A DNA stretch of 64,000 nucleotides, taken from positions 256,001-320,000 of the forward strand of contig CAWJGT010000034.1 of assembly GCA_963842525.1 (NCBI GenBank), written 5' to 3'. The stretch comes from an uncultured Holophagales bacterium (GTDB lineage: Bacteria; Acidobacteriota; Thermoanaerobaculia; Multivoradales; UBA5704). Below the pieces are notes generated by a model. The model searched no databases and was not told the origin of the DNA. It was given only the letters and a program-made list of their open reading frames with translations. Both the position numbers and the translations under genes were made by a program. Of the stretch, positions 1 to 64,000 are shown one piece after another. Every line of letters begins with the position of its first letter. Within the stretch, counting starts at the first letter, position 1.

Positions 1-28756
<28,756 letters not shown>

Positions 28757-38820: not shown

Positions 38821-38822
38821 GC

Positions 38823-40090
38823 ATGCAGCAGAGCGTCATCCAGGGCTTTCGGCTTTCCCCGCAGCAGGACCGCCTGTGGTCTCTGCAAGGCGATGGGGGA
38901 GAGCTGCCGTACCGCGCGACCTGTGTGCTCCGGATCACGGGCCGCCTCGACGTGCAGGCGCTGCAAGCGGCCCTGGGACGCGTCGTCGAACGGCACGAGA
39001 TCCTGCGCACCACGTTCCGGCAGGCCCCCGGGATGGAGGAGCCCCTCCAGGTCATCGGCGAGAGCGCGGCCGTGCGCATCGAGCGCTGCGAGCTGCGCGG
39101 CGGTTCCTCCGCAGCGCGGGAGGCGTCGGTCGACGCACTCTTCCTGGAGGCGAGCCGTCTCCCCTTGGACATCGAGAATGGGGAGAACGGCGTCCTGCTG
39201 CGGGCGCGGCTGGGCTGCCTGGCCCCCGACCGGCACCTGCTGCTGCTCGTTCTGCCCGCCCTCTGTGCGGACGCCACAAGCCTGGAGAATCTCGCCGCGG
39301 ACCTGGCGCGCTGTTACGCCGCGCTCTGCGGCGGTCCTGCTCCCGGTGAGACGGCTCAGTACGCCGACATCGCGGACTGGATGAACGGGATGCTCGCAAC
39401 GCATGAGGAGGTGGCGCGGAGGTTCTGGGGGAGCCGCGACGTCTTCGCCAGGCTCGACACCCGGCTACCTCTTGAGCGCGAACCGGCCGGCACTGCGAGC
39501 TTTACACCCCGGTCGGTCCCGGTAGAGGTCGCATCCGCGACTGTCGTCGGCGTCGCCCCGGAGCTCGGCGCCACCGAGGAGGCCGTCCTGCTCACCGCCT
39601 GGCAGATCCTCCTGCGGCGCCTGACCGCCTGGCCGGAGACCGTCGTCGGAGTCGCCTTCGCCGGTCGCAAGCATGCGGAGCTGCGCCATGCGCTGGGACT
39701 CTTTACGCGCCATCTGCCCGCTCCCTGCGCATGGGGGGAGGAGGACTGCTTCGCTGCGGCGGTCCGCGCGACCGCAGAGGCCCTCGCCGAGCTGTCCGGC
39801 TGGCAGGAGTCTTTCACCTGGCGGCGCCTGGCGGCGGACGGCGGAGCTCCTTTCTTCCCCTTCGCCTTTGAATATACCGAGGGCGCCGCCGAGCACCGCC
39901 ACGGCGACACGATCTTCTCGATCCTGCGGTCGCAAGCCCAGACCGACCGCTTCCGGGTGAAGCTCGCCGGCTCGCGGCGCGGCGGCACTCTGACTCTCGA
40001 GCTGCAGTACGACGAGAGCACTTTCCGCCGTGAGGACGCCGAGCGCCTTGCCGGCTGGTACGGGGCCTTGCTGGAGAGCGCGGCGAAGTG
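38823..40090 (+). other. Catalytically degenerate condensation-family domain (interface/I-domain-like)
   Basis: GFRLSPQQ at the N-terminus, RHEILRT, and LPALCADATS (39252) lacking the His residues. The preceding gene ends in an intact C domain. Confidence 0.75.
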
Positions 40091-43000
40091 CCCCGGGGCC
40101 GCGACAGGCGATCTCGGAATTCTCACCGCGGAGGAGCGGCGCGAGGCGCTGGTCGACCTCAACCGGACGGAGGTGGAGCACCCCGGAGCCGGCAGGACGC
40201 TGGCGCGGCTCTTCGCGGAGCAGGCTCGCCGCAGCCCGGACGCGGTCGCGGCCTCGTTCCGCGAGCAGCGGATCACCTATGGGGAGCTGAAAACGCGGGC
40301 CGAGCGGCTGGCCCGCCACCTGCGAGGCCTGGGGGTGGCGCCAGAGGTGCGGGTCGCGCTATGCGTCGAGCGGTCGCTGGACATGGTCCTGGGCATCCTG
40401 GGCATCCTCGAGGCCGGCGGGGCCTACGTGCCCATCGATCCGGCCTATCCGGAGGAGCGGCGGGCCCTGATGCTGGAGGACGCACGCACCCCCGTGCTGC
40501 TCACCCAGGAGCGGCTGGCCCCCGGCCTGGAGGGGCTGCGGGCCGGCGCCCGCATGGTCCGCCTGGACGCGGACTGGCCGGAGATTGCGGCCCACAACCC
40601 CCGCGACGGCCGGGAGGAGGATCTCCCGGAGAATCTGCCGGAACATCTGGCCTACGTCATCTACACGTCCGGCTCTACGGGCCGGCCCAAGGGGGTCATG
40701 GTCTCGCACCGGGCCATCGCGAACCGGCTCCTGTGGAAGCTGCGGGTCTTCCCCCTGGAGCCGGGGGACGTGGTCCTGCAGAAGACGCCCTACAGCTTCG
40801 ACGCGTCGATCTGGGAGATCTTCGTCCCCCTCTTCGCGGGCGCGCGCCTGGCCGTGGCCGAGCCCGGCGGGCACCAGGACCCCGCCTATCTCCTGCGCGC
40901 CCTCGCCGAGGAGCAGGTCACTGCGCTCCAACTCGTTCCCTCCATGCTGCCGGTCCTCCTCGACCAGTCAGGAGCGGAAGAGGCCGGCCGCAGCCTTCGC
41001 GGCCTGTTCTGCGGCGGCGAGGCCCTCGCCGCCGAGGCGGTGGACCGCGCCTTCGCCCTGCTGGCGGGCGTTGTCGTGCGCAACCTCTACGGTCCCACGG
41101 AAGCCTCCATCGACGTCGCCTCCCAGCCCTGCGAGCCGGGCAGGTGGGACGGGATCGTGCCCATCGGCCGGCCCATCGACAACATCCGGCTCTACGTGCT
41201 CGACCCCCGAGGCGTGGCGGTGCCGCCGGGGCTGACCGGAGAGCTGCACATCGGCGGAGTGAACCTGGCCCGAGGCTATCTGGGCCGGCCTGGCCTCACG
41301 GCCGAGCTCTTCGTGCCGGATGCCTGGAGCGGCCTCCCTGGCGAGCGGCTCTACCGCACCGGCGACCTGGTCCGCCTCTCGGGCGCCGGGCTGCTCGAAT
41401 TCCTCGGCCGGGCCGACGGCCAGGTCAAGCTCCGCGGCTTCCGCATCGAGCTGGGCGAGATCGAGGCCGCCCTGCTGCGGCATCCGGCGGTGCAGGAGGC
41501 GGCCGTCCTGGTGCGGGAGGACGCTCCCGGAGCCGCACGCCTGGTGGCGTACGTGGCGCCGGGCGAGACCGCCGCCGGGGAGCTGCGCGCCTTCCTCACC
41601 GCGCGCCTGCCGGAGCACATGGTGCCTCCCGTCGTGGTGACCCTGCCGGCCCTGCCGCGCTTGCCCAACGGCAAGCTGGACCGCCGCGCCCTGCCGGCGC
41701 CGGACCCCGCCGGCCTCGCGGGCTCCCACGGCCCGCGCACCCCGGCCGAAGAGCTGATGGCGACGCTGTGGCGGGACCTTCTGAAGGTCGAGCGGGTCGG
41801 GGCCGGCGACGACTTCTTCGCCCTGGGCGGCCACTCTCTGCTGGCCACTCGGCTCGTTTCCCGCATCCGCCAGGTCTTCGCAGTCGAGCTGTCAATGCGG
41901 GATGTGTTCCAGGCACCCACCCTCGCCGGCCTCGTCGCGGAGGTATCCGCCGCGCGCGGCATCGCCTCCGGCCGCTGGGTGCCGCCCCTCGTGCCGGTGG
42001 CTCGCATGCCTGGCACCGGGCTGCCGCTCTCCTTCGCCCAGCAGCGGCTCTGGTTCCTGCACCAGCTCGACCCGGAGAGCCCGTCCTACCACCTGCCCAT
42101 GGCCGTGCGGTTCCTCGGTCCCCTGGACCTGCCGGCGTTCGCCGCTGCGGTGCGCGAGGTCGTGCGGCGGCACGAGTCCCTGCGCACCCGCTTCCCGGCC
42201 GAGGATGGGAAGCCGGTCCAGGTGATCGAGCCGACGCCGGCCTCGCCGCTGGCCTGCATCGACCTGTCGGCGCTCTCGGAGGCACGGCGCGAGGCCGAGG
42301 CGCGGCGGATCACGGCAGCCGAGGCGGAGCGCCCCTTCGACCTGGCCGCGGGACCCCTGATCCGCCCGGCCGTGCTGCGGCTGGACGAGCGGAGCCACGT
42401 CCTGCTCGCCTGTCTGCACCACATCGTCTCCGACGGCTGGTCCCTCGGTGTCCTGGTGCGCGAGGTGGCGGCGCTCTACCAGGCGTTTCGCACGGGGACG
42501 GCGCCGGACCTTCCGGAGCTGCCTGTCCAGTACGCCGACTTCGCAGTCTGGCAGCGGAGCTGGCTGTCCGGCGAGGTGCTGGAGGCGGAGCTCGCCTGGT
42601 GGCGGGAGCGGCTGGCCGGAGCGCCGCCGCGTCTCGATCTCCCCACCGACCGCCCGCGGGGCCTCTCCGGCGGCTCCGGACGGCAGCCGCTCCGGCTCTC
42701 CGCCGGCCTCACGCAGCGCCTCGGAGACCGCGCGGGAGCCACGCCGTTCATGGTCCTGATGGCCGGCTTCCAGGCCCTGCTCGGCCGCTGGTGCAACCAG
42801 GACGACGTGCTCGCCGGAGCGCCGATCGCCAATCGCACGCGGGCGGAGATCGAGGGTCTGATCGGCTTCTTCGTCAATACCCTGGTGCTGCGCGCCGACC
42901 TCTCCGACGGGCCGTCGTTCCGCCGCCACCTGGAGCGTGTGCGCGAGGCGACGCTCGCCGCCGCGGACCACCAGGACGTTCCCTTCGAGCAGGTCGTCGA

Positions 43001-45203
43001 GGCCGTGCGGCCGGGGCGGGTACGTGGTGAGAACCCGCTCGTCCAGGCGCTGCTCGTGCTGCAGAACGCGCCCGTCGGGCCCCTGGACCTTCCGGACCTG
43101 GCGCTGCGTCCTGAGCCGGTCTCGTTCAGCGCGGCCAAACTGGATCTGACCCTGGAGCTGGCGGAGACTCCGGAGGGGATCGGCGGCGTCTGGCAGTACC
43201 GGGCCGACCTCTTCGACGCGGTCACCGTGGCGCGCCTGTCGCGGCACCTCGCCAACCTGCTGGCGGCGGCGGTGGAGACTCCTGAGCGGAGTGTGTCCGA
43301 GCTGCCGTTGCTCGACGAGGCCGAGGCGACCCAGCTCCTGGTGGAGTGGAACGACACGGCGGCAGGGTTGCCGGAGGGTCTCGTCCACGAAGTCGTCGCA
43401 CAGCGGGCGGCGGAGCGTCCGGACGCTGCGGCGCTTGTCTCTTCCGGCGGGAGCTGGACGTACAGCGAGCTGGACCGGCGGGCCAACGGCCTCGCCCGGC
43501 GCCTGCGCGGTCTCGGTATTGGAGATATTGGGCCGGAGCGGGTGGTGGCGATCTGCGCCGAGCGCTCGCCCGAGATGGTGCTCGCCCTGCTCGCCGTGCT
43601 CAAGGCGGGAGGCGCCTGGCTGCCTCTGGACCCCGCCTATCCGGCGGAACGCCTGCGCTTCATGTGGAAGGATGCCGGCCGGCCCCTCCTCCTGGCACCC
43701 GAGGGCCTGCTGGAGGGCCTGCCTGCCGAGGCACGCGAGCGCTGCCTCCCGTTGACCGTAGAAGAGGAAGACGTGGACGCGCCGAGCGCGCTGGAGACGG
43801 GCGTCGCTCCTGATCACTTGGCCTATGTGATCTATACGTCGGGCTCCACCGGACGGCCCAAGGGCACGCTCCTCACTCACGGCGGGCTGCGCAATACAAT
43901 CGCGGCCCTCATGCAGGCTTACCGGATCGACCGCGGCTCGCGCATGCTCCAGTTCTCGTCGTTCTCGTTCGACGCCTCCGTGGCCGAGATCTTCGGCGCC
44001 CTGGCCGCCGGGGCCGAGCTGCACCTGGCCGCGCCGCACGAGCTACTGCCCGGGCCCGACTTCGTCCGGCTGCTCCGCGAGCGGCGGATCACTGTCGCCA
44101 CCCTGCCGCCCTCCGCGCTGCTCGCCTCCCCTCCTGAGGAGCTGCCGGAGTTGGCGACCCTGGTGGTGGCGGGGGAGACCTGTCCGCCGGAGCTGGCGGT
44201 GACCTGGGGGCGCGGCAGGCATTTCGTGGATGCCTACGGTCCGACCGAGGCCACGATCGCGGCCAGCGCGGGAGCGGGCGCAGCGATCGGCCGGCCGCTC
44301 GCGAACGTCCGCATCCATCTCCTGGGAGCCGGCCTCCAGCCGGTGCCCATCGGTGCCGCTGGCGAGCTCTGGGTGGCGGGCGCCGGCCTAGCGCGGGGCT
44401 ATCTCGGCCGGCCCGATCTGACCGCGGACCGCTTCCGGCCCGATCCGTTCGCGACCTCTCCGGGCGAACGGCTCTACCGCACCGGCGACCTGGCGCGGCG
44501 GCGGCCGGACGGCGAGCTGGGCTTCCTGGGCCGCATCGACCACCAGGTCAAGGTGCGGGGATTCCGCGTCGAGCTTGGGGAGATCGAGGCGGCGCTGGTC
44601 CGCCATCCGGCCGTACACGCCGCGGCCGTGGCGGCGCACGCGGATCGGATCGCCGCATACGTGGTCCCGGCGGAAGGGTCGGAGGCGAGCGTCTCCGAGC
44701 TGCGCGGCTTCCTGCGGCGCGAGCTGCCGGACTACATGATCCCCGCGGCCTGGGTGACGCTGCCGGCTCTGCCGCTGACACCGGCAGGGAAGGTGGACCG
44801 CCGCGCCCTGCCCGCGCCGGGCACGGAGCGGCCCGACCTGGCCGCCGGCTACACGGCGCCGAGCGGCCCCGTCGAAGAGGTGCTGGCGGACCTCTGGTCT
44901 CGTCTCCTCGGGCTCGAACAGGTGGGTGCCCACGACGACTTCTTCGAGCTCGGCGGCCACTCGCTGCTGGCGACCCAGATGGTCTCGCGCATCCGCAAGG
45001 TGTTCAAGGTGGAGCTGCCGCTGCGCGACTTCTTCGGCCGGGCTACCGTGGCTTCCCTGGCCCGATGGCTCCAGGAGCACGAGGCGAAGCCCGGACAGGC
45101 CATGGCGATCGCGCACGCGGTGCTGAGGATCGCGGCCATGCCGGCCGCCAGCCTCCAGAGCGAGCTGGAGTCCCGGCGGGCGGAACGGAGGCTGGCGCCG
45201 TGA
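38823..45203 (+). CDS. NRPS (~2126 aa): interface-type C(I)-A(Gln-like)-T-C-A(aromatic-like)-T
   Basis: ORF 38817..45203, with ATG 38823 following AGAGGG. The N-terminal C-fold has LPALCAD in place of HHxxxDG. It contains two full A domains, GGHSLL at ~41827 and ~44952, and HHIVSDGWS at ~42417. Confidence 0.94.
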   Translation: MQQSVIQGFRLSPQQDRLWSLQGDGGELPYRATCVLRITGRLDVQALQAALGRVVERHEILRTTFRQAPGMEEPLQVIGESAAVRIERCELRGGSSAAREASVDALFLEASRLPLDIENGENGVLLRARLGCLAPDRHLLLLVLPALCADATSLENLAADLARCYAALCGGPAPGETAQYADIADWMNGMLATHEEVARRFWGSRDVFARLDTRLPLEREPAGTASFTPRSVPVEVASATVVGVAPELGATEEAVLLTAWQILLRRLTAWPETVVGVAFAGRKHAELRHALGLFTRHLPAPCAWGEEDCFAAAVRATAEALAELSGWQESFTWRRLAADGGAPFFPFAFEYTEGAAEHRHGDTIFSILRSQAQTDRFRVKLAGSRRGGTLTLELQYDESTFRREDAERLAGWYGALLESAAKCPGAATGDLGILTAEERREALVDLNRTEVEHPGAGRTLARLFAEQARRSPDAVAASFREQRITYGELKTRAERLARHLRGLGVAPEVRVALCVERSLDMVLGILGILEAGGAYVPIDPAYPEERRALMLEDARTPVLLTQERLAPGLEGLRAGARMVRLDADWPEIAAHNPRDGREEDLPENLPEHLAYVIYTSGSTGRPKGVMVSHRAIANRLLWKLRVFPLEPGDVVLQKTPYSFDASIWEIFVPLFAGARLAVAEPGGHQDPAYLLRALAEEQVTALQLVPSMLPVLLDQSGAEEAGRSLRGLFCGGEALAAEAVDRAFALLAGVVVRNLYGPTEASIDVASQPCEPGRWDGIVPIGRPIDNIRLYVLDPRGVAVPPGLTGELHIGGVNLARGYLGRPGLTAELFVPDAWSGLPGERLYRTGDLVRLSGAGLLEFLGRADGQVKLRGFRIELGEIEAALLRHPAVQEAAVLVREDAPGAARLVAYVAPGETAAGELRAFLTARLPEHMVPPVVVTLPALPRLPNGKLDRRALPAPDPAGLAGSHGPRTPAEELMATLWRDLLKVERVGAGDDFFALGGHSLLATRLVSRIRQVFAVELSMRDVFQAPTLAGLVAEVSAARGIASGRWVPPLVPVARMPGTGLPLSFAQQRLWFLHQLDPESPSYHLPMAVRFLGPLDLPAFAAAVREVVRRHESLRTRFPAEDGKPVQVIEPTPASPLACIDLSALSEARREAEARRITAAEAERPFDLAAGPLIRPAVLRLDERSHVLLACLHHIVSDGWSLGVLVREVAALYQAFRTGTAPDLPELPVQYADFAVWQRSWLSGEVLEAELAWWRERLAGAPPRLDLPTDRPRGLSGGSGRQPLRLSAGLTQRLGDRAGATPFMVLMAGFQALLGRWCNQDDVLAGAPIANRTRAEIEGLIGFFVNTLVLRADLSDGPSFRRHLERVREATLAAADHQDVPFEQVVEAVRPGRVRGENPLVQALLVLQNAPVGPLDLPDLALRPEPVSFSAAKLDLTLELAETPEGIGGVWQYRADLFDAVTVARLSRHLANLLAAAVETPERSVSELPLLDEAEATQLLVEWNDTAAGLPEGLVHEVVAQRAAERPDAAALVSSGGSWTYSELDRRANGLARRLRGLGIGDIGPERVVAICAERSPEMVLALLAVLKAGGAWLPLDPAYPAERLRFMWKDAGRPLLLAPEGLLEGLPAEARERCLPLTVEEEDVDAPSALETGVAPDHLAYVIYTSGSTGRPKGTLLTHGGLRNTIAALMQAYRIDRGSRMLQFSSFSFDASVAEIFGALAAGAELHLAAPHELLPGPDFVRLLRERRITVATLPPSALLASPPEELPELATLVVAGETCPPELAVTWGRGRHFVDAYGPTEATIAASAGAGAAIGRPLANVRIHLLGAGLQPVPIGAAGELWVAGAGLARGYLGRPDLTADRFRPDPFATSPGERLYRTGDLARRRPDGELGFLGRIDHQVKVRGFRVELGEIEAALVRHPAVHAAAVAAHADRIAAYVVPAEGSEASVSELRGFLRRELPDYMIPAAWVTLPALPLTPAGKVDRRALPAPGTERPDLAAGYTAPSGPVEEVLADLWSRLLGLEQVGAHDDFFELGGHSLLATQMVSRIRKVFKVELPLRDFFGRATVASLARWLQEHEAKPGQAMAIAHAVLRIAAMPAASLQSELESRRAERRLAP
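40195..41700 (+). other. Adenylation domain, predicted Gln (DAWQFGLIDK)
   Basis: FDASIWE, ALQLVPS, LFCGGE, NLYGPTEASID. Confidence 0.7.
43380..44820 (+). other. Adenylation domain, Phe/Tyr-family pocket (DAATVAAIAK); exact substrate uncertain
   Basis: FDASVAE, VATLPPS, LVVAGE, DAYGPTEATIA. Confidence 0.55.
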
Positions 45204-48200
45204 GCTGGGACCGGACGACCCCCGCGGATGTCTTCTCGGCCGAGGGCCTGGAGCTGCTCGACCTCCTGCTCGAGGAGCAGGGGATCGACACCGGCGCCGG
45301 CGCGGCGATCGGCCGGCGCGACGACCCGGCGGAGCTGCCGCTCTCCTTCGCCCAGCAGAGGCTCTGGTTCCTCGACCAATGGCGGCCCGGGACGCCGATC
45401 TACAACATCAGCGCGGCCTATCTGCTGGCCGGGCCGCTGGACCTCGCCGTCCTGGCGCGGAGCCTCGCCGAGGTCGTCCGCCGCCACGAGGTGCTGCGCT
45501 CCACGATCCGCACCGGCCCCGACGGCCGGCCGGTCCAGGCCCTGCACCCCGCCGGGCGCTTCGACCTGCCCCTGGTCGATCTGGACGGCCTTGCGCCCGC
45601 GGCGCGCCAGGCCGAGGCTGCACACCGGGTGGCGGCGGAGGCGCGCCGGCCGTTCGACCTGGCCGCCGGGCCGCTGCTGCGGGCTACGGCGCTCCGCCTG
45701 GCGCCGGACGAGCACGCCCTGCTCCTCACGCAGCACCACATCGTCTCCGACGGCTGGTCCATGGGGGTGCTGGTGCGCGAGGTCGCGTCGCTCTACGCCG
45801 CCTTCGCGGCGGGCCGGCCGTCTCCCCTGCCGGAGCTGCCCATCCAGTATGCCGACTTCGCGGCCTGGCAGCGGCGCCACCTCCAGGGCGAGGAGCTGGA
45901 GCGCCAGCTCTCCTGGTGGCGGCAGCACCTGGCCGGCGCTCCTTCCCTGCTGGAGCTGCCGGCGGACCGGCCGCGCCCGTCCGTCCAGGGGTCCGCCGGC
46001 GCCACGTTCTCCTTCTCGCTCCCCGGCGGGCTGCGTGACGCTCTCGACGCCCTGGCACAGCGCGAGGGGGCGACCCTGTTCATGGTCCTCCTCGCCGCCT
46101 TCGCGGCTCTGCTCCACCGCTGGACGGGGAGTGACGACCTCGTCGTGGGCTCGCCCGTTGCGAACCGGAACCGCGACGAGACCGAGGGCCTGATCGGCTT
46201 TTTCGTGAACACCCTGGCGCTGCGCGCCGGCATGGCGGACGATCCCCCGTTCCGCAGGCTGCTCGGCCGCGTCCGGGAGACGACCCTGGGCGCCTACGAC
46301 CACCAGGACATCCCCTTCGAGATGCTCGTCGACGAGCTGGGGCTGGAGCGGGAGCTGGCGTCACACGCCGCTCTTCCAGGTCGTGTTCTCGCTCCAGAAC
46401 GTGCCGGTGCCCGCGGTCGGCCTGCCGGGCGGGCTCTCCCTGCGGCCCCTGCCGGCCCACAGCGGCACCGCGAAATACGACCTCAACCTGTCCATGACCG
46501 AGACGCCGGAGGGGCTCGCCGGCTCGTTCGAGCACAGCACGGACCTCTTCGACCCGGCCACGATCGAGCGCCTGGCCGGTCACCTCCGCGTCCTCCTGGA
46601 GGGCATCGTGGAGGACCCGGACCTGCGGCTGTCGGCCCTGCCGCTGCTCACGCCGGACGAACGCGACCGGATCGCCGCCTGGAGCGCCGCGGGCCATCGC
46701 TGGACGGTCGCCGGCAACCTGCACGAGCGGTTTGCTGCCCAGGCAGCGCGGACGCCCGGAGCGCTCGCGGTCACGATGCGCGGCGGCGAGAGCCTCACCT
46801 ACCGCGAGCTGGCCGACCGCGCCTCCCGGCTGGCCCGGCACCTGCGCGCCCTCGGGGTCGGCCCCGAGTCGCGGGTGGGGCTCCTCGCCGAGCGCTCGCC
46901 CGCTCTGGTCGTGGGGATCCTCGGCGTCCTCGAAGCCGGCGGCGCCTACCTGCCCCTCGATCCGGCCCATCCCGACGAGCGACTGCTCTACATGCTGCGC
47001 GATGCTGGCGCAGGGCCGGTGGTGGTCGATCCTGCTCTCGCGGAGCGCGCCACGGCCCTGGATGGCGCGGCACGGCTGGTGCTGCTCGGGACGGACACGG
47101 ACAGCCACGGACTGCCACCGACTCGCACTGAGCCGGAGCACCCGGCCTATGTCATCTACACCTCGGGCTCGACTGGAAGGCCCAAGGGCGTGGTGGTCAC
47201 GCATGCCAACGTGCTGCGGCTGTTCGCGGCGACCGAGGGGTGGTTCGGCTTCGGCCCGCAGGACGTCTGGACCCTGTTCCACTCCTACGCCTTCGACTTC
47301 TCGGTATGGGAGATCTGGGGTGCCCTGCTCCATGGCGGCCGGCTTGTGGTTGTGCCGTACCTGGTGAGCCGTTCGCCCGAGGACTTCCACCGTCTCCTCG
47401 TGGAAGAGGGCGTGACGGTACTGAGCCAGACCCCTTCGGCATTCCGTCAGCTCGTACATGTGGAGGGCTCATCGCGCTTGGCGCTGCGCTCCGTAGTCTT
47501 CGGCGGCGAGGCGCTGGATCTCCCGGCACTGGCTCCCTGGTTCGAGCGCCATGGCGACCGCGAGCCGCGCCTCGTCAATATGTATGGCATCACCGAGACG
47601 ACGGTGCATGTCACCTACCGGGAGATCGGGCAGGCGGACACGGCGTCTCCCGGCAGCGTCATCGGCCGCGCGCTCCCGGACCTGTCGGTCCACCTGCTCG
47701 GGCGGCACGGCGCGCCGGTGCCGGTAGGTGTGCCCGGGGAGATCCACGTCGGCGGCGCGGGGCTGGCCCGCGGCTACCTGGGCCGTCCGGAGCTGACCGC
47801 CGAGCGCTTCGTGCCGGACCCCTTCTCGGGCTCGAACGGTGCCCGGCTCTACCGCAGCGGCGACCTGGCGCGCTGGCGGCCGGACGGGGACCTTGAGTAT
47901 CTGGGCCGTATCGACCAGCAGGTCAAGGTCCGCGGCTTCCGCATCGAGCTGGGGGAGATCGAAGCGGCTCTGGCCGGGCACCCGGGCGTGCGCGAGGCCG
48001 CGGTGCTCCAGGGGGACGACGGCCGGCTGACCGGCTACGTGGTGCCGCGGGAGGCGCCGCCGCGCCCGGCCGACCTGCGGAGCCATCTGGAGGAGCGCCT
48101 GCCGGACTACATGATCCCGGCGGGCTTCGTCCTGCTCGCGGCCCTGCCGCTGACCGCCAACGGCAAGCTCGACCGGCGGGCCCTCCTGGACCAGGCGCCG

Positions 48201-51200
48201 GAGGCCGCGGCGGCCCGGGGGGAGGACCATGCCGCGCCGCGCACGCCGGCCGAGGAGCTGCTGGCCGCCGTTTGGCAGCAGGTGCTGGGCCTCGACCAGG
48301 TCGGCATCCGTGACAACTTCTTCGCCCTCGGCGGCGACTCCATCCGCAGCATCCAGGTTCTTTCGCTGGCGCAGGAGCGCGGCCTGAGCCTCTCGGTCCA
48401 GGATATCTTCCAGCACCAGACGATCGCCGACCTGGCAGCCGCCCTGGCCGCGGCGGCGGAGGAAAAGGCGGCCGGCCCGGAGGACGGCGAGCCGCTGTGG
48501 GTCCTGTCCGACGAGGAGCGGAGCCGCCTGCCGCAGGACGTGGAGGATGCCTACCCCCTGACCGGCCTTCAGGCCGGCATGCTCTTCCACATGCGGCTGG
48601 CGCCGGGCGAGGCTCTCTACCACAACGTCAACAGTTGGCACCTCCAGGGGCAGCTCGATCTGGCGGCCCTCCAGGACGCGGTGGATCGGGTCGTGGCGCG
48701 GCACGCGGTGCTCCGCACGTCCTTCGACCTGAGCGCTCCCGCCGAGCCGCTCCAGCGCGTGCACCGCACGGCCGCGCTGCCGGTGGGCGGCGGCGATCTG
48801 CGACATCTCAACCCGGAGCAGCAGGAGGAGGCGATCGCAGACTACGTGCAGCGCGAGCGAAGGAGGCCGTTCGACTTTGCGCATCCGCCGCAGATCCGCT
48901 TCCACGTCCACCGGCGGAGCGACGACAGCTTCCAGTTCACCCTGACGGAGAACCACGCCATCTTCGACGGCTGGAGCCTCCACTCCACCCTGACGGAGAT
49001 CTTCCGCGACTACACGGCCAGGCTGCACGGCCAGCCGCTGCCGCCCGAGCCGCCGCCGGCCGTCGCGTTCCGCGATTTCGTGATGCTGGAGCGCGCCGCG
49101 CGCCGCGCAGAGGAGACGCGCGCCTTCTGGGCCCGCCAGGTGGCCGGCGCGCCGTTCGGCGGCCTGCCCCGCTGGCCGGTGGAGCGCGAGCGTGGCGGTA
49201 TGGGCACTGGAACGGGAACGGTGACCCGCGTTCTCGCGCCGGAGCTGGTGGCGCGCCTCAAGGCCGTGGCGCGGGAGGCCGCGGTGCCGTTCAAGAGCCT
49301 GCTGCTGGCCGTCCACGCCCGGGTGATGGCCGCGGCCAGCGGAGAGGAGGACGTGGTCACCGGCTTCGTGGTCAACGGCCGGCCCGAGTCCCGCGGCGGC
49401 GAGGAGGTGCGCGGCCTCTTTCTCAATTCCGTCCCGCTGCGGCCCGGCCTGGCGCGGGCGCGGAGCTGGCGGGAGCTGGTGCGCGCCGCCTTCGCGGCCG
49501 AGTGGGAGATGCTGCCCCACCGCCGCTATCCGCTGATCGCGATCCAGGACGACGCCGGCGGCCGTCCCCTGTTCGAGACCGCCTTCAACTACATCCATTT
49601 CCACGTGGCCGAAGCGATCTCCCGCCCCGGCGGGCTCGCCGTCCTCTCCAGCCGGCGCTCCGAGGGGAACAACCTCGTCCTGATGGTGAATTTCGACCAG
49701 ACCGCGACCGGCGCCGCCGGCCTCGTCCTCGGGCTGGACTATCACGCGGCCGAGCTGGCGCGCCCCCAGGTCGAAACCATCGCCGGGATGTTCCTGCGCG
49801 CCAGCACCGCCCTGGTGGAGGACCCGGACGCCGATGCCTTCGCCGCGAGCCTGCTGTCGGACGAGGAGCGCGAGCCGTTGGCGGCGTGGAGCGCCGCCGG
49901 GCCGTCGCCGCCCGTCTTCTGCCTGCACGACCGGTTCGCGGCCCGGGTGGCCGCAGACCCGGACGCCCCGGCGGTGACGTACGAAGGCGAGACGCTGAGC
50001 TACGGCGAGCTGAGCCGCCGGGCCGACCGGCTGGCGCAGGTGCTGTGCTCCTGGGGGATCGGCCCCGGCGAGCTGGTGGGGCTCTGCCTGGAACGCTCGG
50101 CAGAGCTGGTCGTGGCTATCCTCGGCGTGCTCAAGACGGGCGCCGCCTACATGCCTGTCGATCCGGACTACCCGGGTGAGCGCATCGCGCGGCTGCTGGA
50201 GGACAGCGGCGTGCCGGTGCTGCTGACGCGGACCTCCCTGGCGGAGCGCCTGCCGGCGCTCTCCTGCCGGCTTCTGCTGCTCGACCGTGAGCGGCCGGCG
50301 CGCGACCCCGTGCCGCTGCCGCGCGACCCCCTGCGGCTGCCGCACGACCCCCTGCCGCTGCCGCACGACCCCCTGCCGCTGCCGCACGACCCCCTGCCGC
50401 TGCCGCACGACCCCCTGCCGCTGCCGCACGACCCCGTGCCGCTGCCACACGACCCCGTGCGGCTGCCGCACGACCCCGCGCCGCTGCCGCACGACCCCGC
50501 GCCGCCGCCGCACGACCGTGAGCGCCTGCCGCTCGACCTCCCGCGCGCCCGGCCGGAGGACCCGGCGTACGTCATCTACACCTCGGGCTCGACGGGCACG
50601 CCCAAGGGTGTCGTGGTCTCCCATGCCAATGTGGCGCGGCTGTTCGCGGCCACCGACTCCTGGTTCGGCTTCGGGCGCGGCGACGTCTGGACCCTGTTCC
50701 ATTCGTGCGCCTTCGACTTCTCGGTCTGGGAAATCTGGGGCGCCCTGCTCTACGGCGGCCGGCTGGTGGTGGTCCCCTACTGGGTCAGCCGCTCGCCGAA
50801 GGCATTCTATGACCTGTTGCGGCGTGAGCGGGTGACGGTGCTCAACCAGACCCCCTCGGCCTTCCGCCAGCTCGTGTGGGCCGAGGAGGAGGCCCTCGGA
50901 GACCGGGAGCCCGACCTGGCGCTGCGCACCGTGATCTTCGGCGGCGAGGCACTGGATCTGGCGAGCCTCGCGCCCTGGTTTGCCCGCCACGGCGACCGCC
51001 GGCCCGAGCTGGTCAACATGTACGGCATCACGGAGACGACGATCCACGTGACGTACCGTCTGCTGCGCACTGAGGACGTCGAGGCGGCCCGCGGCAGCGT
51101 CATCGGCCGGGCGATTCCCGATCTTTCGCTGCACGTCCTCGATGCGGCCTTCCACCCGGCACCGATCGGCGTCCCCGGGGAGATCTGCGTCGGCGGCGCC

Positions 51201-56557: not shown

Positions 56558-59500
56558 ATGAGCATCGGCACGGAAACTCCCCGGTCGGCGGCAGAGAAGC
56601 GCGAGCTTCTGGCGAGGCTCCTCGCGGAGAGGGCGAGCCGCGCCGGCCAGCACCCTCTCTCGTTCGGCCAGCAGCGCCTCTGGTTCCTCGACCAACTGCA
56701 GCCGGGCTCCCCGGCCTACAACATCTCGATGGGGATGCGCCTCCCGGTCCCGCCGCCGGTCGCAGTGCTCGAGGCAGCCCTGCGGGAGATTGCCCGGCGC
56801 CACGAGGTGCTGCGAACGACCTTCGCGGTCGCGGACGGTGAGCCGGTCCAGGTCATTGCGCCCGCGGCGCATCCGGCTCTGGCGCAGGTCGATCTTCTCG
56901 GTCTTCCCGAGGCTCTGCGCCCCGGCGCGGCGCGGCGCGCCAGCGATCAGCTCACCCAGAGCCCCTTCGACCTCGCCCGCGGGCCGCTGTTCCAGATCGC
57001 CCTCCTGCGGCTCGGCGCCGCCAACCACCTCGTCCTCCTGGTGATGCATCACATCATCTCGGACGGCTGGTCGGCGGGGGTCCTGATCCGGGAGCTGATC
57101 GCTCTCACCGAGGCGCTGGCCGCCGGCCGGCCCTCCCCCTGCCGGAGCTCCCGGTCCAGTACGCGGACTTCACCCACTGGCAGCGGCAGTGGCTGCGCGG
57201 AGAGGTCTTGGACGAGCAGCTCGCCTACTGGCGACGGCAGCTCGCGGCGGGTCCCTTCGTCCTCGACCTGACGGCCGACCATCCGCGCCCGCCCATGCAG
57301 AGCCTGCGGGGAGCCAGCGAACGCATCCACGTCCCGCAGGCGTTGCGGGAGCGCCTCACCGCGCTGGGCCAGACGCAGGGGGCGACCCTCTTCATGGTCC
57401 TGCTGGGCGCCTTCCAGGCGCTGCTCCACCGCTCCACGGGGCAGGAGGCGATCAGCGTCGGAACGCCCACCGCGGGCCGCAGGCGCCGGGAAGCTCGAGG
57501 GCATGATCGGCCTGTTCGTGAACATGCTGGTCCTGCGCGTCGATCTCTCGGGAGATCCCACCGGCCGGGAGCTGCTGGGACGCGTGCGCGAGGCGGCCCT
57601 GGGGGCCTACGCCCATCAGGACATCCCCTTCGAAAAGCTCGTCGACGCTCTGCAGCCTGAGCGGGACGCCAGCCGCTCGCCGCTCTTCCAGGCCGTCCTC
57701 GTGCTCCAGAACACGCCGGACACGCCGGAGATCGCCCCTGGGAGGCCGGACCTGAGCCTCGACGACGTCGAGAGCGAGCGCAGCTCGGCGAAGTTCAACC
57801 TGACCCTCGATCTCGTCGAGGCGCAGGACGGCCTGCGCGGGGTCTTCGAGTACAGCCGCGACCTGTTCAACCGGACGACGATCCGCCGCATGCTGGGCCA
57901 CTTCGAGGCGCTCCTCGCCGGCATGGTGGACGCCCCCCAGGCCCGGATCTCCAGCCTGCCTCTGCTCTCCGCCGCGGAAAGCCACCAGATCCTCCTCGCC
58001 TGGAACGATACGGCCGCGGCGCGCCCCCCAGGGGCCTGCCTGCACGGCCTCTTCGCCCTCCAGGCGCAGCGGTCTCCCGCGGCCCCCGCCGTCACCTTCG
58101 AGGGGCGGACGCTCTCCTACCGCGATCTGGATCTCCTGTCCGGCCGCCTGGCCTCCCGACTCCTGCATCTGGGGGTCGGGCCCGATACGGCCGTGGGCGT
58201 GCTGATGGAGCGCTCGGTCGAGATGGTGGTCGGCCTGCTCGGCATCCTCCGCACCGGAGGCGCCTATCTGCCGCTCGACCCCGACTACCCCGCCGAGCGG
58301 CTCGGCTGGATGATCGCCGACGCCCGCGTGCCGGTGCTCCTTGCCCAGGAACGCCTCCTGCCGGCCCTGCCGCCGACGGAGGCCCGGGTGCTCTGCCTCG
58401 AAACGGGGTGGGAGGGCCAAGGAGAGCCCGAGGTCCGGAGCGAAGCATCCGACCAGAATCTGGCCTACGTCCTCTATACCTCGGGCTCGACCGGCCGTCC
58501 CAAAGGAGCGATGGTCCCGCACCGCGGCATCGTCAACCGCCTGCTCTGGATGCAGGAGGCCTACGGCCTGACCGCCGCGGACCGGGTGCTCCAGAAGACT
58601 CCGTTCAGCTTCGACGTCTCGGTCTGGGAGCTCTTCTGGCCCCTCCTCACCGGTGCGCATCTCGTCGTGGCCCGGCCCGGCGGGCACCGCGATCCCGCCT
58701 ACCTGAGCGACCTGATCGAGCGCGAACGGGTGACGGTGATGCACTTCGTTCCGTCCATGCTCCAGGCTTTCCTGGAGGAGCCGGACCTCTCCGGCTGCGC
58801 CAGCCTGCGCCTGGTGGCGGCCAGCGGCGAGGCCCTCACGCCCGAGCTGCGCCGCCGCTTCCGGGAGCGGCTCGCCGCCCGGCTGCAGAACCTCTACGGC
58901 CCGACCGAGGCGTCGGTCGATGTCACGTCCTGGAGCTGCGACGAGGAGGCCCGCGGTGGCATCGTCCCGATCGGCCGGCCGGTCGCCAACACCCGCATCC
59001 ACCTGCTCGACCGGTCGTGGCAGCCGGCGCCGACCGGCGTGCCCTCCGAGCTGTGCATCGGCGGCGTGCAGCTCGCCCGCGGCTATTGGAGCCGCCCGGA
59101 CCTGACGGCGGAGCGCTTCGTGCCCGATCCCTGGAGCGAGGCGGCCGGAGGGCGGCTCTATCGCACCGGCGACCTCGCCCGCCACCTGCCCGACGGCGCC
59201 GTCGAGTACCTCGGCCGCATCGACTTCCAGGTGAAGGTGCGCGGATTCCGCATCGAGCTGGGCGAGATCGAGTCGGTCCTCGCCTCCCATCCCGGGCTGC
59301 GGGAGGTGGTCGTCGTGGCGCGGCGCGAGGCGGACGGCGACAGCCGGCTCGTCGCCTACGTCGTCGCGAAGGACGAGCCTGCTCCGGCCCCTGCTCCGGA
59401 AGTGGCCGGCCTGCGCGCCTTCCTGGCCGAACGGCTGCCGGACTACATGGTGCCCTCCGCCTGGGTCGAGCTCGCGGCTCTGCCACTGACGCCCAGCGGC

Positions 59501-62500
59501 AAGGTGGACCGCCGCGCGCTGCCGGCTCCCGAGGCGCTCGCGGCGGATCCCTCCGCCTACACCGCGCCCGGCACCCCGATCGAGCAGGTGGTTGCGGGGA
59601 TCTGGGCTGAGATGCTGCGGGTCGACCGGGTCGGCGCGGAGGCCAACTTCTTTGCGCTGGGCGGCGACTCGATCAAGGCGGTGCGCCTGGTCAATCGCAT
59701 CAACGAGCGGCTCGCCTCGGACCTGCGGGTCCAGGACGTCTTCAAGCACCAGACGGTCGGCGCCCTGGCCGCGCGGGTCCAGACCCGGGCGGAGAGCTCG
59801 GTCGCCGGAGAGCTCGCGGCCGGCCGGGCCGAGATCGAGCGGCTGCAGCGCGCGGTCCTGGCCGACGAGCGGCAGCGCGGGCGCCTGCCCGCCTTCTGGG
59901 AGGACTTCTTCCCGCTGAGCGGCATCGAGAAGGGGATGATCTACTACACCCTCCTCCTGCCCGATCAGCCGGTCTATCACGACCAGCACATGTACCTGTT
60001 GTCGATCCCCGACCCGGACCGCTTCTTCCGCGCCCTCGGCCTGCTCACCGGGCGCCACCCCATCCTGCGCAGCACGTTCCATCTCGACGAGCTCGATGAG
60101 CCGATGAAGGTGGTCCATCGGGCCGTACCGGTGACCCGCGAAGTCGAGGACCTCTCGGGCCGGCCGGCCGGCGAGCAGCGGCGCAGGATCGACGAATACC
60201 GGGCCGAAGACCTGCGCCACAAGTTCCTCTTCCAGGGAGAGCTGCTCTGGCGCCTCAAGCTCTTCCGCCTCGACGGCGATCTCCACGCCTCGGTCTGGAC
60301 CTGGCACCACGCCATCCTCGACGGCTGGAGCAACCTGACGTTCTGGCTGGACCTCAACGAGCTGCTGGCGCGAAAGGACCTCGACCGCCTCGACTCCGCG
60401 CCGCCGCTCGCGAGCAGCTACAAGGACTATCTGGCGATCACCCTGGGGAGGCGCCGCTCCGCGGCCACCGAGGCCTTCTGGCGCGAGACCCTCGCCGGCG
60501 TGAGCCGCAACAAGCTGCCCTTCAACCGGGCGCAGACCCACGGGGGGGCCACCTTCGGCATGCGGTCGCTCAACCGGCCCCTGTCCCCGGAGCTTCTGGG
60601 GAGCCTGCGCGGGCGGGTGGCTTCATTGCAGGCGCCGCTCCAGGCGCTCTTCCTGGCCGCTCACCTGCACCTGCTGCGTGTGACCTCCGGCGAGGAGGAC
60701 GTGGTCACGGGTGTGGTGTCGCACGACCGGCCCGAGATCCCGGACGGCGACAAGATCGTCGGCTGCTTCCTCAACACCTTCCCGCTCCGCCTGCGGCTGG
60801 AGCCCACCGAGAGCGGCGCGGCGCTGATCCGCCGGGTCGGACGCTACCTGGCCGCGGAGAAGGAACACGAGATCCCTCTGGCCGACATCGCCGCGATCGT
60901 CGGCGCCCGGGAGTCGGCCCAGAACCCGATCTTCGACACGCTGCTCAACTTCATGGACTTCCACCTCATGGAGGAGGTGCGGGAGAACGTCCTCTTCCAG
61001 CCCATGGGAACGGGGCGGTCCTCCGGTCTGCCGAGCGTCGAGCTCGAAGAGATGACGAACACCCTGTTCAACGTCGAGGTCTCGGTGACGTTGAGCCATC
61101 CGTCGCTCCGCATCAAGTACTCGCCGCGGCATTTCGACGCTGCGGACGTCGAGCGGGCGGCGGTGCTGTACGAGCGGATCCTGGAGGCTCTGGGCCGCGA
61201 CCTGGAGGCCCCACTGGACACCGGATCGCTGCTGTCACCGGCCGAGCGCGAGCAGCTCGTCCAGCTCTACAACGACACGGCCCGCGACTACCCGCGCGAG
61301 CGGCCGTTGCACAGCTTCTTCGAAGAGCAGGCGGCCCATCACCCCGAACGGACCGCCGTCGTTTCCGGCGGCCGGTCTCTGACCTACGGCGAGGTCGAGC
61401 AGCAGGCCAACCGGCTCGCCCGCCACCTGCTCGCCTGCGGCGTCCAGCCGGGCGACAACGTCGGCGTCTGCTTCGAGCGCTCGCCCGAGCTGGTCGTCGC
61501 CCTGATGGCCGTGCTCAAGGCCGCCGCGGCCTATGTGCCCCTGGAGCCGTCCTATCCGCCGGCCCGCAAGAGCTACATCGTGTGCCAGTCCGGCGTCCGG
61601 CTCCTCCTCGCCGACCGGGAGCACGAGCTGCCGGCCGAGGTGCTGGTCTTCGATCCCGCGAAGCTGGAGAGCTACAGCGACGATCTCCTGTCGCTGCGTC
61701 CGCGGCCGGAGGATCTGGCCTACACCATCTACACCTCGGGCTCCACCGGCACACCCAAGGGCGTGATGATCGAGCACAACAGCGCGGTCAACCTGATCGG
61801 GTGGGTCAACCGCGATTTCCCCGTGGGCCCCGGTTCCCGGGTGCTGATGCTCTCCTCGGTCTGCTTCGACCTGTCGGTCTACGACATCTTCGGCACCCTC
61901 GGGGCCGGCGCCACGGTGGTTATTGCACGGCAGGAGGAGGTCCAGGACCCGGCGGCCCTGCTGCGCCTGGTAACCGGGCAGAAGGTCACCTTCTGGAACT
62001 CCGTCCCCTCCACGCTCGGCCTCCTGGTGCAGTACCTGGAGGAGACCGATCCGGGCTTCCGCGGCGAGGACCTGCGGATCGCCTTCCTGAGCGGCGACTG
62101 GATTCCGCTGTCGCTGCCTGAGCGGGCTCGACGGTTTTTCCCCAACCTGCGGGTCATCAGCCTGGGCGGCGCCACCGAGGGCACCGTCTGGTCCATCTTC
62201 CATCCCGTCGAGAGGATCGACGAGGCCTGGCTGAGCATCCCCTACGGCAGGCCGCTGGACAACAACACCTTCTACGTCCTCGACAGGAGCCCCGGGCTGG
62301 TCCCGGCGGGTGTGGTGGGCGACCTCTATATCGGCGGCGTGGGCGTGGCCCGCGGCTATGCCGGAGATCCGGAGAAGACGGCGGCCTCCTACGTGCCAGA
62401 TCCGTTCTCGGGCCCTGGACAGCGGCTGTACCGCACGGGCGATCTGGGACGGATGCTGGCGGAAGGCGAGATCGAGTTCCTCGGTAGGAGCGACCACCAG

Positions 62501-64000
62501 GTCAAGATCCGCGGCTTCCGCGTCGAGCTGGGCGAGATCGAGAGCCAGCTCTCCCGGGCTCCCGGCGTGCGCGAGGCCGTGGTGCTGGCCCGCGCCGACC
62601 GGGCGGGACAAAAGTACCTGTGCGGCTACGTCGTCGCCTCCGGGGAGACCCCCGGCGAGGGATCAACCGGGGCGCTCCAGGCGCATCTGGCCGCGTCGCT
62701 GCCGGGCTACATGATCCCGGACACCTTCGTCTTCCTCTCCGAGCTGCCGCTGACGGCCAACGGCAAGATCGACCGCAAGGCCCTGCCCGAGCCCGAGGCG
62801 GCCCATGCCGCCGGTGAAGCCCATGTGGCCCCGGCCGGCGAGGTCGAGGCGGCCCTGGTGGAGATCTGGGAAGAGGTGCTGGGCCTGCCCGGCATCGGCA
62901 CCACAGCGGACTTCTTCGCCCTGGGAGGGCACTCCCTCTCGGCCATCCAGGTCCTGACCCGGGTGCGCCGCCGCTTCGAGGTCGATCTGCCCCTGCCCGA
63001 CTTCTTCGACAGCCCCACAGTGGCCGGGCTCGCCGCCGCTATCGAACGGCTGAGGGGGGCGGGCGCCGCGGCCCCGCCGCTCGTCCGGCGCGAACGGCCG
63101 GAGCGGCTGCCGCTGTCCTTCGCCCAGGAGCGGCTCTGGTTCCTCGACCGGCTCCAGCCGGGCAGCCCGTTCTACAACCTGCCCCTGGCCATGGAGGCGC
63201 ACGGCGCCCTGTCCGTGCCCGCGCTGGCTGCCAGCCTCGGCGAGGTCGTCCGCCGCCACGAGGTGTTGCGCACGTCCTTCCCCGTCATGGCTGGCAATCC
63301 GGTGCAGCTCATCGCACCCGCCCTCGACGTGGCGCCTCCGCTGGTGGATCTGGGCTCCTTGCCCGCGGAATCCATCACGGCCGAGGTGGGCCGGCTGACT
63401 CGCGCTTTCGCCGTCCTGTCCTTCAACCTCGCCGCCGGGCCCCTGCTGCGGACCGCCCTGCTGCGCCTCGCCCCGGAGCGCCACGTGGTGCTGGTCAACA
63501 TGCACCACATCATCACCGACGGCTGGTCCATGGCCCTGCTGATGCAGGAGGTTGCCGGGCTGTACCCGGCCGTCAGGAACGGCGAGCCCTCGCCGTTGCC
63601 CGAGCTGTCCGTCCAGTATGCCGACTTCGCCCTCTGGCAGCGCGCGGGGCTCTCGGGAGCGGCCCTGGAGGAGCAGGTCGGCTGGTGGCGCCGCAGCCTG
63701 GCCGGCGCTCCCTACGTGCTCGACCTTCCCACCGACCGGCCCCGGCCGGCCATCCAGAGCCTGCGCGGCGCCCACGCCTCCTCGTTCCTGCCCGCCGGCC
63801 TCGCGCGCGAGCTCCAGGACCTCTCCAAGCAGCAGGGCGTCACCTCCTTCATGACCCTGCTCGCGCTCTTCGGCGTGCTCCTGCACCGCTACACGGGGGT
63901 CGAGGATCTGCTGATCGGCTCGCCCATCGCCGGCCGCAACCACGCCGACGTCGAGCGCCTCATCGGGCTCTTCGTCAACACCCTCGTCCTGCGCGTCGAG
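56558..64000 (+). CDS. NRPS, 3'-truncated, two compensating frameshifts (~57137, ~57491): C-A(Ser)-T-C(modAA-like)-A(Cys)-T-C...
   Basis: ATG 56558 (MSIGTETPRSAAEKRELLARLL...LSFGQQRLW). After ~57493 the original frame is open to the window end, so the ORF track misses it. Hand translation gives FDVSVWELFW, GGDSIKA (~59660), WHHAILDGWS (~60302), FDLSVYDIFG (~61865), GGHSLSA (~62924) and HHIITDGWS (~63503). Confidence 0.9.
58040..59530 (+). other. Adenylation domain, predicted Ser (DVWHASLVDK)
   Basis: Hand translation: FDVSVWE, VMHFVPS, VAASGE, NLYGPTEASVD. Confidence 0.8.
59900..61200 (+). other. Condensation domain, modified-amino-acid (dehydrating) type
   Basis: Follows T GGDSIKA; EDFFPLSGIEKGMIYY...VYHDQ; WHHAILDGWS. 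Confidence 0.75.
61310..62795 (+). other. Adenylation domain, predicted Cys (DLYNFSLVWK)
   Basis: Hand translation: FDLSVYD, TFWNSVPS, AFLSGDW, SLGGATEGTVW. Confidence 0.8.

Follow-up and report, generated by a model that had tools for sequence, protein, structure and literature searches.

The DNA considered here, called the window below, is a stretch of 64,000 nucleotides (C34:256001-320000) from an uncultured Holophagales bacterium whose assembled genome comprises 9.95 Mb in 34 contigs with 67-69% G+C. The whole window lies inside a plus-strand line of non-ribosomal peptide synthetase (NRPS) and polyketide synthase (PKS) genes that extends over approximately C34:225100-359400, or about 134 kb, in a genome where a census counts 265 adenylation (A) domains. 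Our subject is the gene at the 3' end of the window and, in particular, its second condensation (C) domain, denoted C*, which joins two consecutive modules (A1-T1 and A2-T2, where T is the thiolation domain) that may build a dehydroalanine-cysteine unit.

Translation of 57503-64000 (+) gives a single open frame of 2166 aa that runs past the window end; this open 3' end is one likely reason why an open reading frame (ORF) list without open-ended frames omits it. Pfam reports in the frame two AMP-binding stretches (7e-182), two PP-binding, three Condensation and two AMP-binding_C matches. The true gene start is the ATG at 56558, immediately 3' of the stop of the preceding NRPS/PKS gene at 56555. 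Domain limits were obtained with local phmmer comparisons and specificity codes from a motif-anchored alignment (Table 1). A first-pass annotation, made from the letters of the window, had read the order A(Ser)-T(GGDS)-C(HHAILDGWS)-A(Cys)-T at 58040..63050 and had noted that no heterocyclization (Cy) domain is present at the junction; Pfam and phmmer recover the same order at 58043-63052, and the middle C domain has HHxxxDG and lacks DxxxxD. The dehydrobutyrine (Dhb) that it had placed a few residues upstream also has a counterpart, namely a Thr-like A domain followed by a canonical dehydrating-type (CmodAA) C domain, where Dhb is probably formed, four building blocks ahead of the Cys-type module. 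Beyond the window, the line continues with a further Ser-like A domain (DVWHVSLVDK).

Table 1. Domains and motifs of the gene containing C*, and of the Thr-like module upstream, in window positions
Feature	Position	Strand	Basis
Thr-like A domain, code DFWSVGMVHK	46722-48209	+	code alignment
Canonical CmodAA domain after the Thr-like A domain; PFKSLLLAVH, HRRYPL	48516..49847	+	McyA 335 bits, AmbE 214 bits; canonical tree clade
First C domain of the gene, ordinary L-clade, HHIISDGWS	56558..57950 (3' limit approximate)	+	Pfam Condensation 1.8e-38 on 56558-57271
A1, Ser-like code DVWHASLVDK	58043..59542	+	phmmer placement, code alignment
T1, GGDSI core; GGDSIKAV 59660-59683	59573..59827	+	phmmer, motif
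C*, diverged C domain of the CmodAA clade; HHAILDGWS 60305-60331	59873..61207	+	PDB matches, motifs, trees
C* motif PLQALFLAAH	60635-60664	+	Gln (60641-60643) where published domains have Lys/Arg; His retained
C* motif KEHEIPLAD	60860-60886	+	His-Glu at the published Arg-Arg position
C* subclade-specific Met and Glu	61052, 61076	+	column conservation
A2, Cys-like code DLYNFSLVWK; LSGDWIP 62087-62107, GGATEGTVWS 62165-62194	61310..62800	+	phmmer, code alignment
T2, GGHSLSAIQV 62924-62953	62843..63052	+	phmmer, motif
Next C domain, ordinary L-clade, HHIITDGWS	63110..64000	+	phmmer, motif

In a three-frame translation, the first C domain of the gene as assembled is broken near 57134 and near 57491 by two 1-nt frameshifts that compensate each other. 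In soil-metagenome contigs of about 97% identity, run X1 has an additional C after 57134 and run X2 has one base fewer at 57491, which restores a single frame; this check is confined to these two sites and uses two runs, each with a single contig at a depth of about 3. The four runs matched are soil or unspecified metagenome contigs that share at most 0.21 of the stretch, the uncovered parts being uninformative. As the shifts do not occur in nearly identical contigs from the environment, the gene also exists in uninterrupted form, and those of the window stem either from the assembly or from changes peculiar to the strain. Frame changes within otherwise intact A and C domains recur along the line, approximately one per 12 kb, for example at 45065-47131 and 63915-64729 and, beyond the window, at 69645-70587, 77317-78805, 90528-92028 and 93909-95412.

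C* belongs to the PF00668 family and retains an intact HHAILDGWS. Since the subtypes of C domain all have the same fold, a structural model would not tell the readings considered below apart. Its top PDB matches are McyA 8jbr (159 bits, 1.6e-45) and AmbE 7r9x (123 bits, 1.8e-34), which are the two solved dehydrating CmodAA domains, and Cy domains in the PDB match it only at 5e-6 to 3e-5. Papers are cited here by their PMC numbers. According to PMC11342130, CmodAA domains have the signature [K/R]SVLLAAH, which begins with Lys or Arg in all 50 domains and ends with His in 48 of them, and the C6 motif begins with Arg (96%) or Arg-Arg. The line contains two other modAA-like domains, one at 48516 after the Thr-like A domain and one at the window-equivalent position 95722 after a Ser-like A domain; both have the full signature, and they are 48% identical to each other and only 31% to C*. 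C* itself keeps the signature His (LAAH). A dual epimerization/condensation function was considered for C* and rejected, since the second His motif HH[I/L]xxxxGD given for such domains near the N-terminus in PMC1894796 is absent: a regular expression for HH[ILVM]xxxxGD found it in 0 of 135 domains, C* included.

The position of C* among C domains was determined from FastTree trees of sequences picked by similarity to C*. A tree of 135 sequences places it in a clade of 51 leaves (support 0.997) with a sister clade of 53 leaves. In a tree of 380 sequences, C*, the sister clade and the canonical CmodAA domains form one clade of 180 leaves (support 0.998), and DCL-like domains fall outside. All of the 152 sequences with Lys or Arg at the signature position are inside this clade; the residue is absent from 28 of the 180 members and occurs in none of the other 180 sequences counted. 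The C* subclade again has 51 leaves (support 0.998), with Lys or Arg in 40 and the signature His in 39. Among the 17 leaves closest to the target, Lys or Arg is found in 7, Gln, the residue of the target, in 10 and His in 16. At the site pair 61052/61076, a Met is present in 98% of the C* subclade and 0% elsewhere, and a Glu in 96% of the subclade.

The first-pass annotation had called the domain modAA-like. The top matches to McyA and AmbE and the place inside the 180-leaf clade bear this out, but the domain is not a typical member: it belongs to a diverged subclade, has Gln for Lys/Arg and His-Glu for Arg-Arg, and reaches 159 bits to McyA versus 335-396 for the canonical domains of the same line. 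Judged by these sequence relationships, C* is a distinct, well-supported subclade within the dehydrating CmodAA clade.

The arrangement A(Ser/Thr)-T(GGDS)-C*-A(Cys-like)-T recurs as a cassette. In 41 related genomes, C* copies of 53-100% identity are found in ten places (two in G000, five in G004, two in G023 and one in G002), and the next matches fall to at most 37% identity. All ten close copies share one layout: the upstream A domain has a Ser code in six and a Thr code in four; the intervening T domain has GGDS[IM] in all ten; C* has HHA/SxLDGWS almost always; and the downstream A domain has DLY[NS]FSLVWK, DLFNFSLVWK or DLWNMSLVWK in the eight complete cases, the other two being truncated after DLYN, where the contig ends. 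The T domain that follows could be read in eight of the ten and has GG[HN]SLxA[IV]QV; the exact GGHSLSAIQV of T2 is found in five of seven close copies and SAVQV variants in the remaining two. A second cassette of the source genome lies at C3:579359-580705 (-), where a C* of 74% identity is part of a 9263-aa open frame and is flanked by the A codes DVWHVSLVDK and DLFNFSLVWK.

To extend the sample, 1.84 billion representatives were searched, which yielded 150 proteins and, by local per-domain scoring, about 41 domains with at least 260 bits; the GGDS-type T domain precedes nearly all representatives scoring at least 150 bits. For the 41 non-local members of the 51-leaf C* clade, the downstream A code is DL[YFW]x[FLM]SL[VI]WK in 32, other in 3 and unreadable in 6 (32/35 readable), and the upstream code is Ser in 15, Thr in 15, DLTK-type (Asx-like) in 6, other in 1 and unreadable in 4 (36/37 readable being Ser, Thr or DLTK). 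In the sister clade, by comparison, one of approximately 43 readable cases has the Cys-like A type, and in the canonical CmodAA clade none does. A second sample, from a collection of 5.8 billion proteins, added 59 C* domains, with a Cys-like code downstream in 52, another in 2 and an unreadable one in 5 (52/54), and upstream codes for Ser in 14, Thr in 27, DLTK in 6, other in 2 and unreadable in 10 (47/49 Ser/Thr/DLTK). The two samples are related to each other, and similarity to the target decided the choice in both, which means that their counts do not represent independent events.

The pairing of C* with this A type is kept to about 40% identity across Acidobacteriota, Bacteroidota, Firmicutes and Gammaproteobacteria. 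At position 4 of the A code, the close acidobacterial group has Asn (7) or Ser (5) and the distant group, mainly Bacteroidota and Firmicutes, has Asp (40). The nearest database proteins come from metagenome-assembled genomes (MAGs) of Thermoanaerobaculia and other Acidobacteriota. Cluster look-ups for 20 representatives returned MAGs of Acidobacteriota/Thermoanaerobaculia as well as Pedobacter alluvionis, Aliikangiella, Fulvivirga and Fluviicola, with generic names only, and a named search added Paenibacillus, Chitinophaga, Flavitalea and [Flexibacter] sp. ATCC 35208 as carriers. A locus search with the C* of P. alluvionis recovered only its own genome and two distant Streptomyces matches, and among 121 genomes sampled from the genus of P. 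alluvionis, where coverage of producers is uncertain, a C* copy of more than 34% identity was found only in P. alluvionis. The Thr-2,3-diaminopropionate (Dap) junction of isopedopeptin was tried as a product of C* and rejected, as the module orders of the C* proteins do not match the published peptide (PMC7979671). Some C*-bearing NRPSs are small, such as a three-module protein of P. alluvionis and Paenibacillus proteins of roughly 1700 aa. Two C*-bearing NRPS proteins from other sources, P0173 and P0178, contain glycosyltransferase Pfam families in the same protein.

The codes of A1 (DVWHASLVDK) and A2 (DLYNFSLVWK) are ones that we take to specify Ser and Cys, respectively, following the Stachelhaus tables. 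For A2, the assignment to Cys is supported by three further comparisons: the code agrees at 7 of 10 positions with that of a local A domain with an oxidase insert (DLWNLSLIWK); the domain is 47% identical to this oxidase-insert domain and 41% to local Gly/Ser/Thr A domains; and its best single-stretch PDB match is the Cys-activating A domain of BmdB (472.8 bits), which LgrA outscores only when two A domains are summed. The Ser-like and Cys-like assignments of the first-pass annotation thus agree with ours, the latter being backed by the oxidase-insert likeness and the BmdB match. A domains of the A2 type also follow C domains of the ordinary kind; this is so for 5 of 7 such A domains of the source genome and likewise in the proteins P0027 and P0166. 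A literature string search for A2-type codes returned no papers, and one supplementary file of PMC9248904 contained 0 occurrences of the code strings.

The following scheme would account for these observations. A1 would charge T1 with L-Ser, to which the upstream chain would be joined by the gene's first C domain. C* would then take water from the T1-bound peptidyl-Ser, leaving dehydroalanine (Dha), and link this by a peptide bond to the T2-bound amino acid, most probably L-Cys loaded by A2, after which the ordinary C domain would hand the chain to the next Ser module. Dehydration by C* is suggested by its place in the clade of proven dehydrating domains, by the bias toward beta-hydroxy donors and by the retained signature His and HHxxxDG: a bias toward Ser, Thr and DLTK-type donors is the pattern expected for beta-elimination, and with HHxxxDG intact, formation of the peptide bond is to be expected as well. 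The order of the domains, their codes, the clade and the recurrent cassette are observed; that C* dehydrates, that A2 takes Cys and what becomes of the thiol, which may stay free, enter a disulfide or attack either Dha or the Dhb upstream, are inferred. That the two modules build a Dha-Cys unit, in which C* both dehydrates the Ser on T1 and joins it to the T2 residue, has in our estimate about an even chance of being correct.

A candidate source of a different substrate for A2 lies close to the line. An sbnA/sbnB pair is located at C34:368545-370612 (L005:8545-10612) on the minus strand, approximately 9 kb past the last NRPS piece, and both genes exceed the NCBIfam equivalog cut-offs (SbnA TIGR03945, 388.4 versus 349.95; SbnB TIGR03944, 332.6 versus 326.9); the 5' part of sbnB is in a different frame. 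Given this pair, some A domain of the line probably loads Dap, and A2 is one candidate. The code DFFHHGG[VI]NK is found in the line just upstream of the window and across the window start. In the related genome G005 (C46; L044, approximately 8528-9442), an SbnA domain is contained in a 3177-aa NRPS frame whose A codes are DLYDLSLVWK, DAFFLGVTFK and DFFHHGGINK, a possible fusion of precursor supply to an assembly line. The general rule that a DLYD code means Dap was considered and rejected, as such A domains are found in genomes that lack SbnA, P. alluvionis included.

Several observations weigh against a Dha-Cys unit made by C*. The domain also matches the non-dehydrating D-clade domains of bacitracin synthase 3 (122 bits), PvdL (118 bits) and TycB (103 bits), and its score to McyA is far below those of the canonical domains at 48516 and 95722 (335 and 396 bits to McyA, 214 and 242 to AmbE). 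It has Gln (PLQALFLAAH) where the published CmodAA domains have Lys or Arg in 50 of 50, a position whose mutation in AmbE strongly cut activity (PMC11342130), and it lacks the C6 arginines (KEHEIPLAD), an RR-like pair being found in 0 of the 51 leaves of its subclade. The trees were built without named reference sets; A2 falls in a separate ..FSLVWK class, for which Cys is a reading of the code; the sbnA/sbnB pair offers Dap in its place; the gene is interrupted by frameshifts as assembled; and the 20 cluster look-ups and the named search tied no member of the subclade to a known compound. On the strength of the Gln (shared by 10 of the 17 closest leaves), the missing C6 arginines, the weak PDB margin over non-dehydrating domains and the few members that follow non-hydroxy donors (Val-like in P0218, aromatic in P0231), C* could be a D-clade domain specialized for its acceptor, which condenses without dehydrating and keeps Ser-Cys. 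We regard this as unlikely, however, in view of the Ser/Thr/DLTK-type donors in 36/37 and 47/49 readable cases, the location of the subclade in the clade that carries the CmodAA signature and the signature His in 39 of 51 members; moreover, mutation of the C6 arginines in AmbE had no significant effect (PMC11342130). Decay of the gene, or perhaps of the line as a whole, with frameshifts that are real in the strain and no product, is very unlikely. The two frameshifts in the first C domain would fit decay, as would the A domains split at 77317/78251, 90528/91151 and 93909/94981 and the C domain split at 69645/70258, but core motifs are preserved and in-frame stops absent in all domains examined, the sites 57134 and 57491 are in frame in the contigs of about 97% identity, and NRPS frames elsewhere in the assembly run for 7059 and 9263 aa without interruption, which fits sparse assembly indels.

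Two further alternatives retain the dehydration by C* and differ in what happens on the acceptor side. If A2 loads L-2,3-diaminopropionate instead of Cys, the product would be Dha-Dap or, should the beta-amine attack Dha, a diazepanone, with no sulfur at this place. Besides the sbnA/sbnB pair over the cut-offs, this substrate is favored by an sbnA in G023 that shares an NRPS run with a C* copy and lies approximately 22 kb downstream of it, by the combination of DLYDLSLVWK and SbnA in one open frame of G005, by the presence of SbnA in all four genomes holding C* and by the similar size of the Cys and Dap side chains. SbnA, however, is over the cut-off in 22 of the 41 related genomes and C* present in only 4, and the GGATExxVW class of A domains is found in 26 of the 41, of which 9 lack SbnA; of 13 such A domains from 8 SbnA-less genomes, 10 are DLYD[FL]SLVW. 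P. alluvionis, likewise, has C* followed by DLYDFSLVWK, and in its genome no SbnA exceeds the cut-off, nor is the SbnB family matched at E <=1e-10. A2 has Asn at code position 4, as do the local oxidase-insert A domain and Cys codes of the Stachelhaus tables, and the DFFHHGG[VI]NK code, present twice in the line and directly before the fused SbnA of G005, marks an alternative user of Dap; together these points make Dap an improbable substrate of A2. The other alternative concerns the thiol, which could add to the beta-carbon of Dha to give a seven-membered 1,4-thiazepan-5-one (a lanthionine between neighboring residues) or to the upstream Dhb to give a macrocyclic methyllanthionine; C* might steer the addition, as NocB C5 does for a beta-lactam, or the addition might be spontaneous. 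C* is almost never seen without DL[YFW]x[FLM]SL[VI]WK downstream (8/8, 32/35 and 52/54), in contrast to the sister clade (once in about 43) and the canonical CmodAA clade (never), and the pairing holds to about 40% identity in four bacterial groups. Such near-exclusive pairing is expected if the acceptor side chain takes part in the reaction, but co-evolution of the acceptor site would fit it too and by itself could explain it. Thiols add readily to dehydroamino acids (PMC10880069), seven-membered S,N rings of NRPS origin exist in verrucosamide (PMC7694325) and the mutanobactins (PMC9400992), and conjugate-addition relatives of CmodAA, namely BlmVI-C2 and its kin, have been described (PMC11342130). 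On the other hand, nothing in the sequence points to ring closure itself, the conjugate-addition CmodAA domains lack both active-site His residues and C* keeps HHxxxDG, and the same A type follows ordinary C domains in the source-genome and P0027/P0166 cases given above. A Pfam scan of 28 + 10 flanking ORFs, covering about 9 kb upstream (L001, up to 225100) and about 18 kb past the last NRPS piece downstream (L005), with some small ORFs left unscanned, contained no LanC-like or other cyclase. Addition of the Cys thiol to Dha or Dhb is a tentative and rather unlikely proposal. We put forward with similar reserve the more specific idea that C* represents an unrecognized class of ring-forming C domain, which would remove water from a donor Ser, Thr or beta-hydroxy-Asx and use both the thiol and the alpha-amine of the acceptor to form a thiazepanone on the line.

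The remainder of the line contains several other features. A Pfam scan between the A, T and C domains shows five PKS modules. At 24590-28633, a weak Condensation match is followed by an A domain with a nitroreductase insert, which is probably a thiazole-forming Cy/oxidase module. A sulfotransferase domain at 20378-21580 (+) is inserted in an NRPS module between the T domain of a Ser-like module (A domain at 18641, code DVWHISLVDK) and an ordinary C domain; in the PDB, its closest counterparts are the sulfotransferases that install the leaving group in olefin synthase (4gox, 225 bits) and CurM (4gbm, 217 bits), and it may O-sulfonate the carrier-bound Ser, giving O-sulfoserine or a second, CmodAA-independent route to dehydroalanine. 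The gene at 38817-45203 starts with a C-like domain (38964-39734, +) that has PALCADATS in the place aligned to the absent HHxxxDG and may be inactive or non-condensing. An MFS transporter domain (L004:17903-19417, +) shares a stop-free frame with the last NRPS piece of the line, and no thioesterase domain was seen in the stretches of the line that were scanned. Both flanks of the line contain TIR-domain proteins (L001:123-2399 and L005:2548-4194, both +), one with PASTA domains and one with DUF7779 adjoining a TPR protein.

Dehydrating C domains have been demonstrated experimentally only recently, and the published sets contain approximately 50 members (PMC11342130). A full-text literature search turned up no account of CmodAA domains that form a subclade linked to an acceptor of the Cys type, although the published domain sets may already include a member. 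The C* subclade is large and coherent, with 51 leaves among the representatives and 59 further domains, and departs from the published signature. If C* makes Dha-Cys or Dhb-Cys, an electrophile beside a thiol is predicted in many orphan peptides; if it closes a ring, chemistry of the lanthionine type enters NRPS enzymology, and the cassette A(Ser/Thr)-T(GGDS)-C*-A(DLYxFSLVWK)-T would mark an unseen motif in many orphan non-ribosomal peptides. In either case, the cassette provides a handle for genome mining and, as T-C*-A-T, a compact four-domain system for biochemistry.

Among known systems, C* is closest to the CmodAA domains of McyA (module-2 C, 8jbr), AmbE (7r9x), Crz1-C2 and AlbB (C2/C3): like them it is a D-clade PF00668 domain placed after the T domain of a Ser/Thr module, keeps HHxxxDG and the His of [K/R]SVLLAAH, and falls in the same 180-leaf clade. 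Unlike the canonical members, it forms a separate subclade, with 31% identity to the two canonical copies of the line, Gln for Lys/Arg, no C6 Arg-Arg and a Met and a Glu of its own; canonical CmodAA domains serve many acceptors, whereas the A domain downstream of C* is nearly always of one Cys-like type. The domains BlmVI-C2 and TlmVI-C2, together with ZbmVI-C2, of the bleomycin family likewise belong to the CmodAA clade and couple the formation of Dha to a conjugate addition; however, they have Phe and Gly/Ala in place of the two active-site His residues (PMC11342130), whereas C* keeps both, so that C* is expected to make a peptide bond.

The thiazepanone considered above has partial precedents among natural products. 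In the 1,4-thiazepane of verrucosamide, neighboring N-Me-Cys and N-Me-Dha residues are joined through sulfur, in the order Cys then Dha, the reverse of the target line; PMC7694325 ties this ring to cleavage of a precursor disulfide and addition of the sulfur to the exomethylene of N-Me-dehydroalanine, and names no enzyme. The 1,4-thiazepan-5-one of mutanobactin forms on an enone and not on Dha (PMC9400992). This analysis linked C* to neither pathway. The proposed order of events, dehydration of Ser/Thr and then thia-Michael addition of Cys, is also that of lanthipeptide synthesis by LanB/LanC, LanM and others, but lanthipeptides are made on ribosomal substrates with activated leaving groups and a zinc cyclase, and the flanking ORFs scanned contained no gene of this kind.

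The model for a ring-forming C* is NocB C5 of nocardicin biosynthesis, which eliminates water from the donor Ser and lets a nucleophile of the acceptor attack the beta-carbon (PMC10880069). That paper sets NocB C5, with its beta-elimination of Ser, addition of the acceptor amine and beta-lactam product, apart from the dehydrating CmodAA domains. The likeness to C* is one of mechanism and does not come from a sequence comparison, and the nucleophile of NocB C5 is the alpha-amine, not a side chain as would be the case for C*. If the ring-forming proposal is true, C* would catalyze a seven-membered analogue of the beta-lactam synthesis by NocB.

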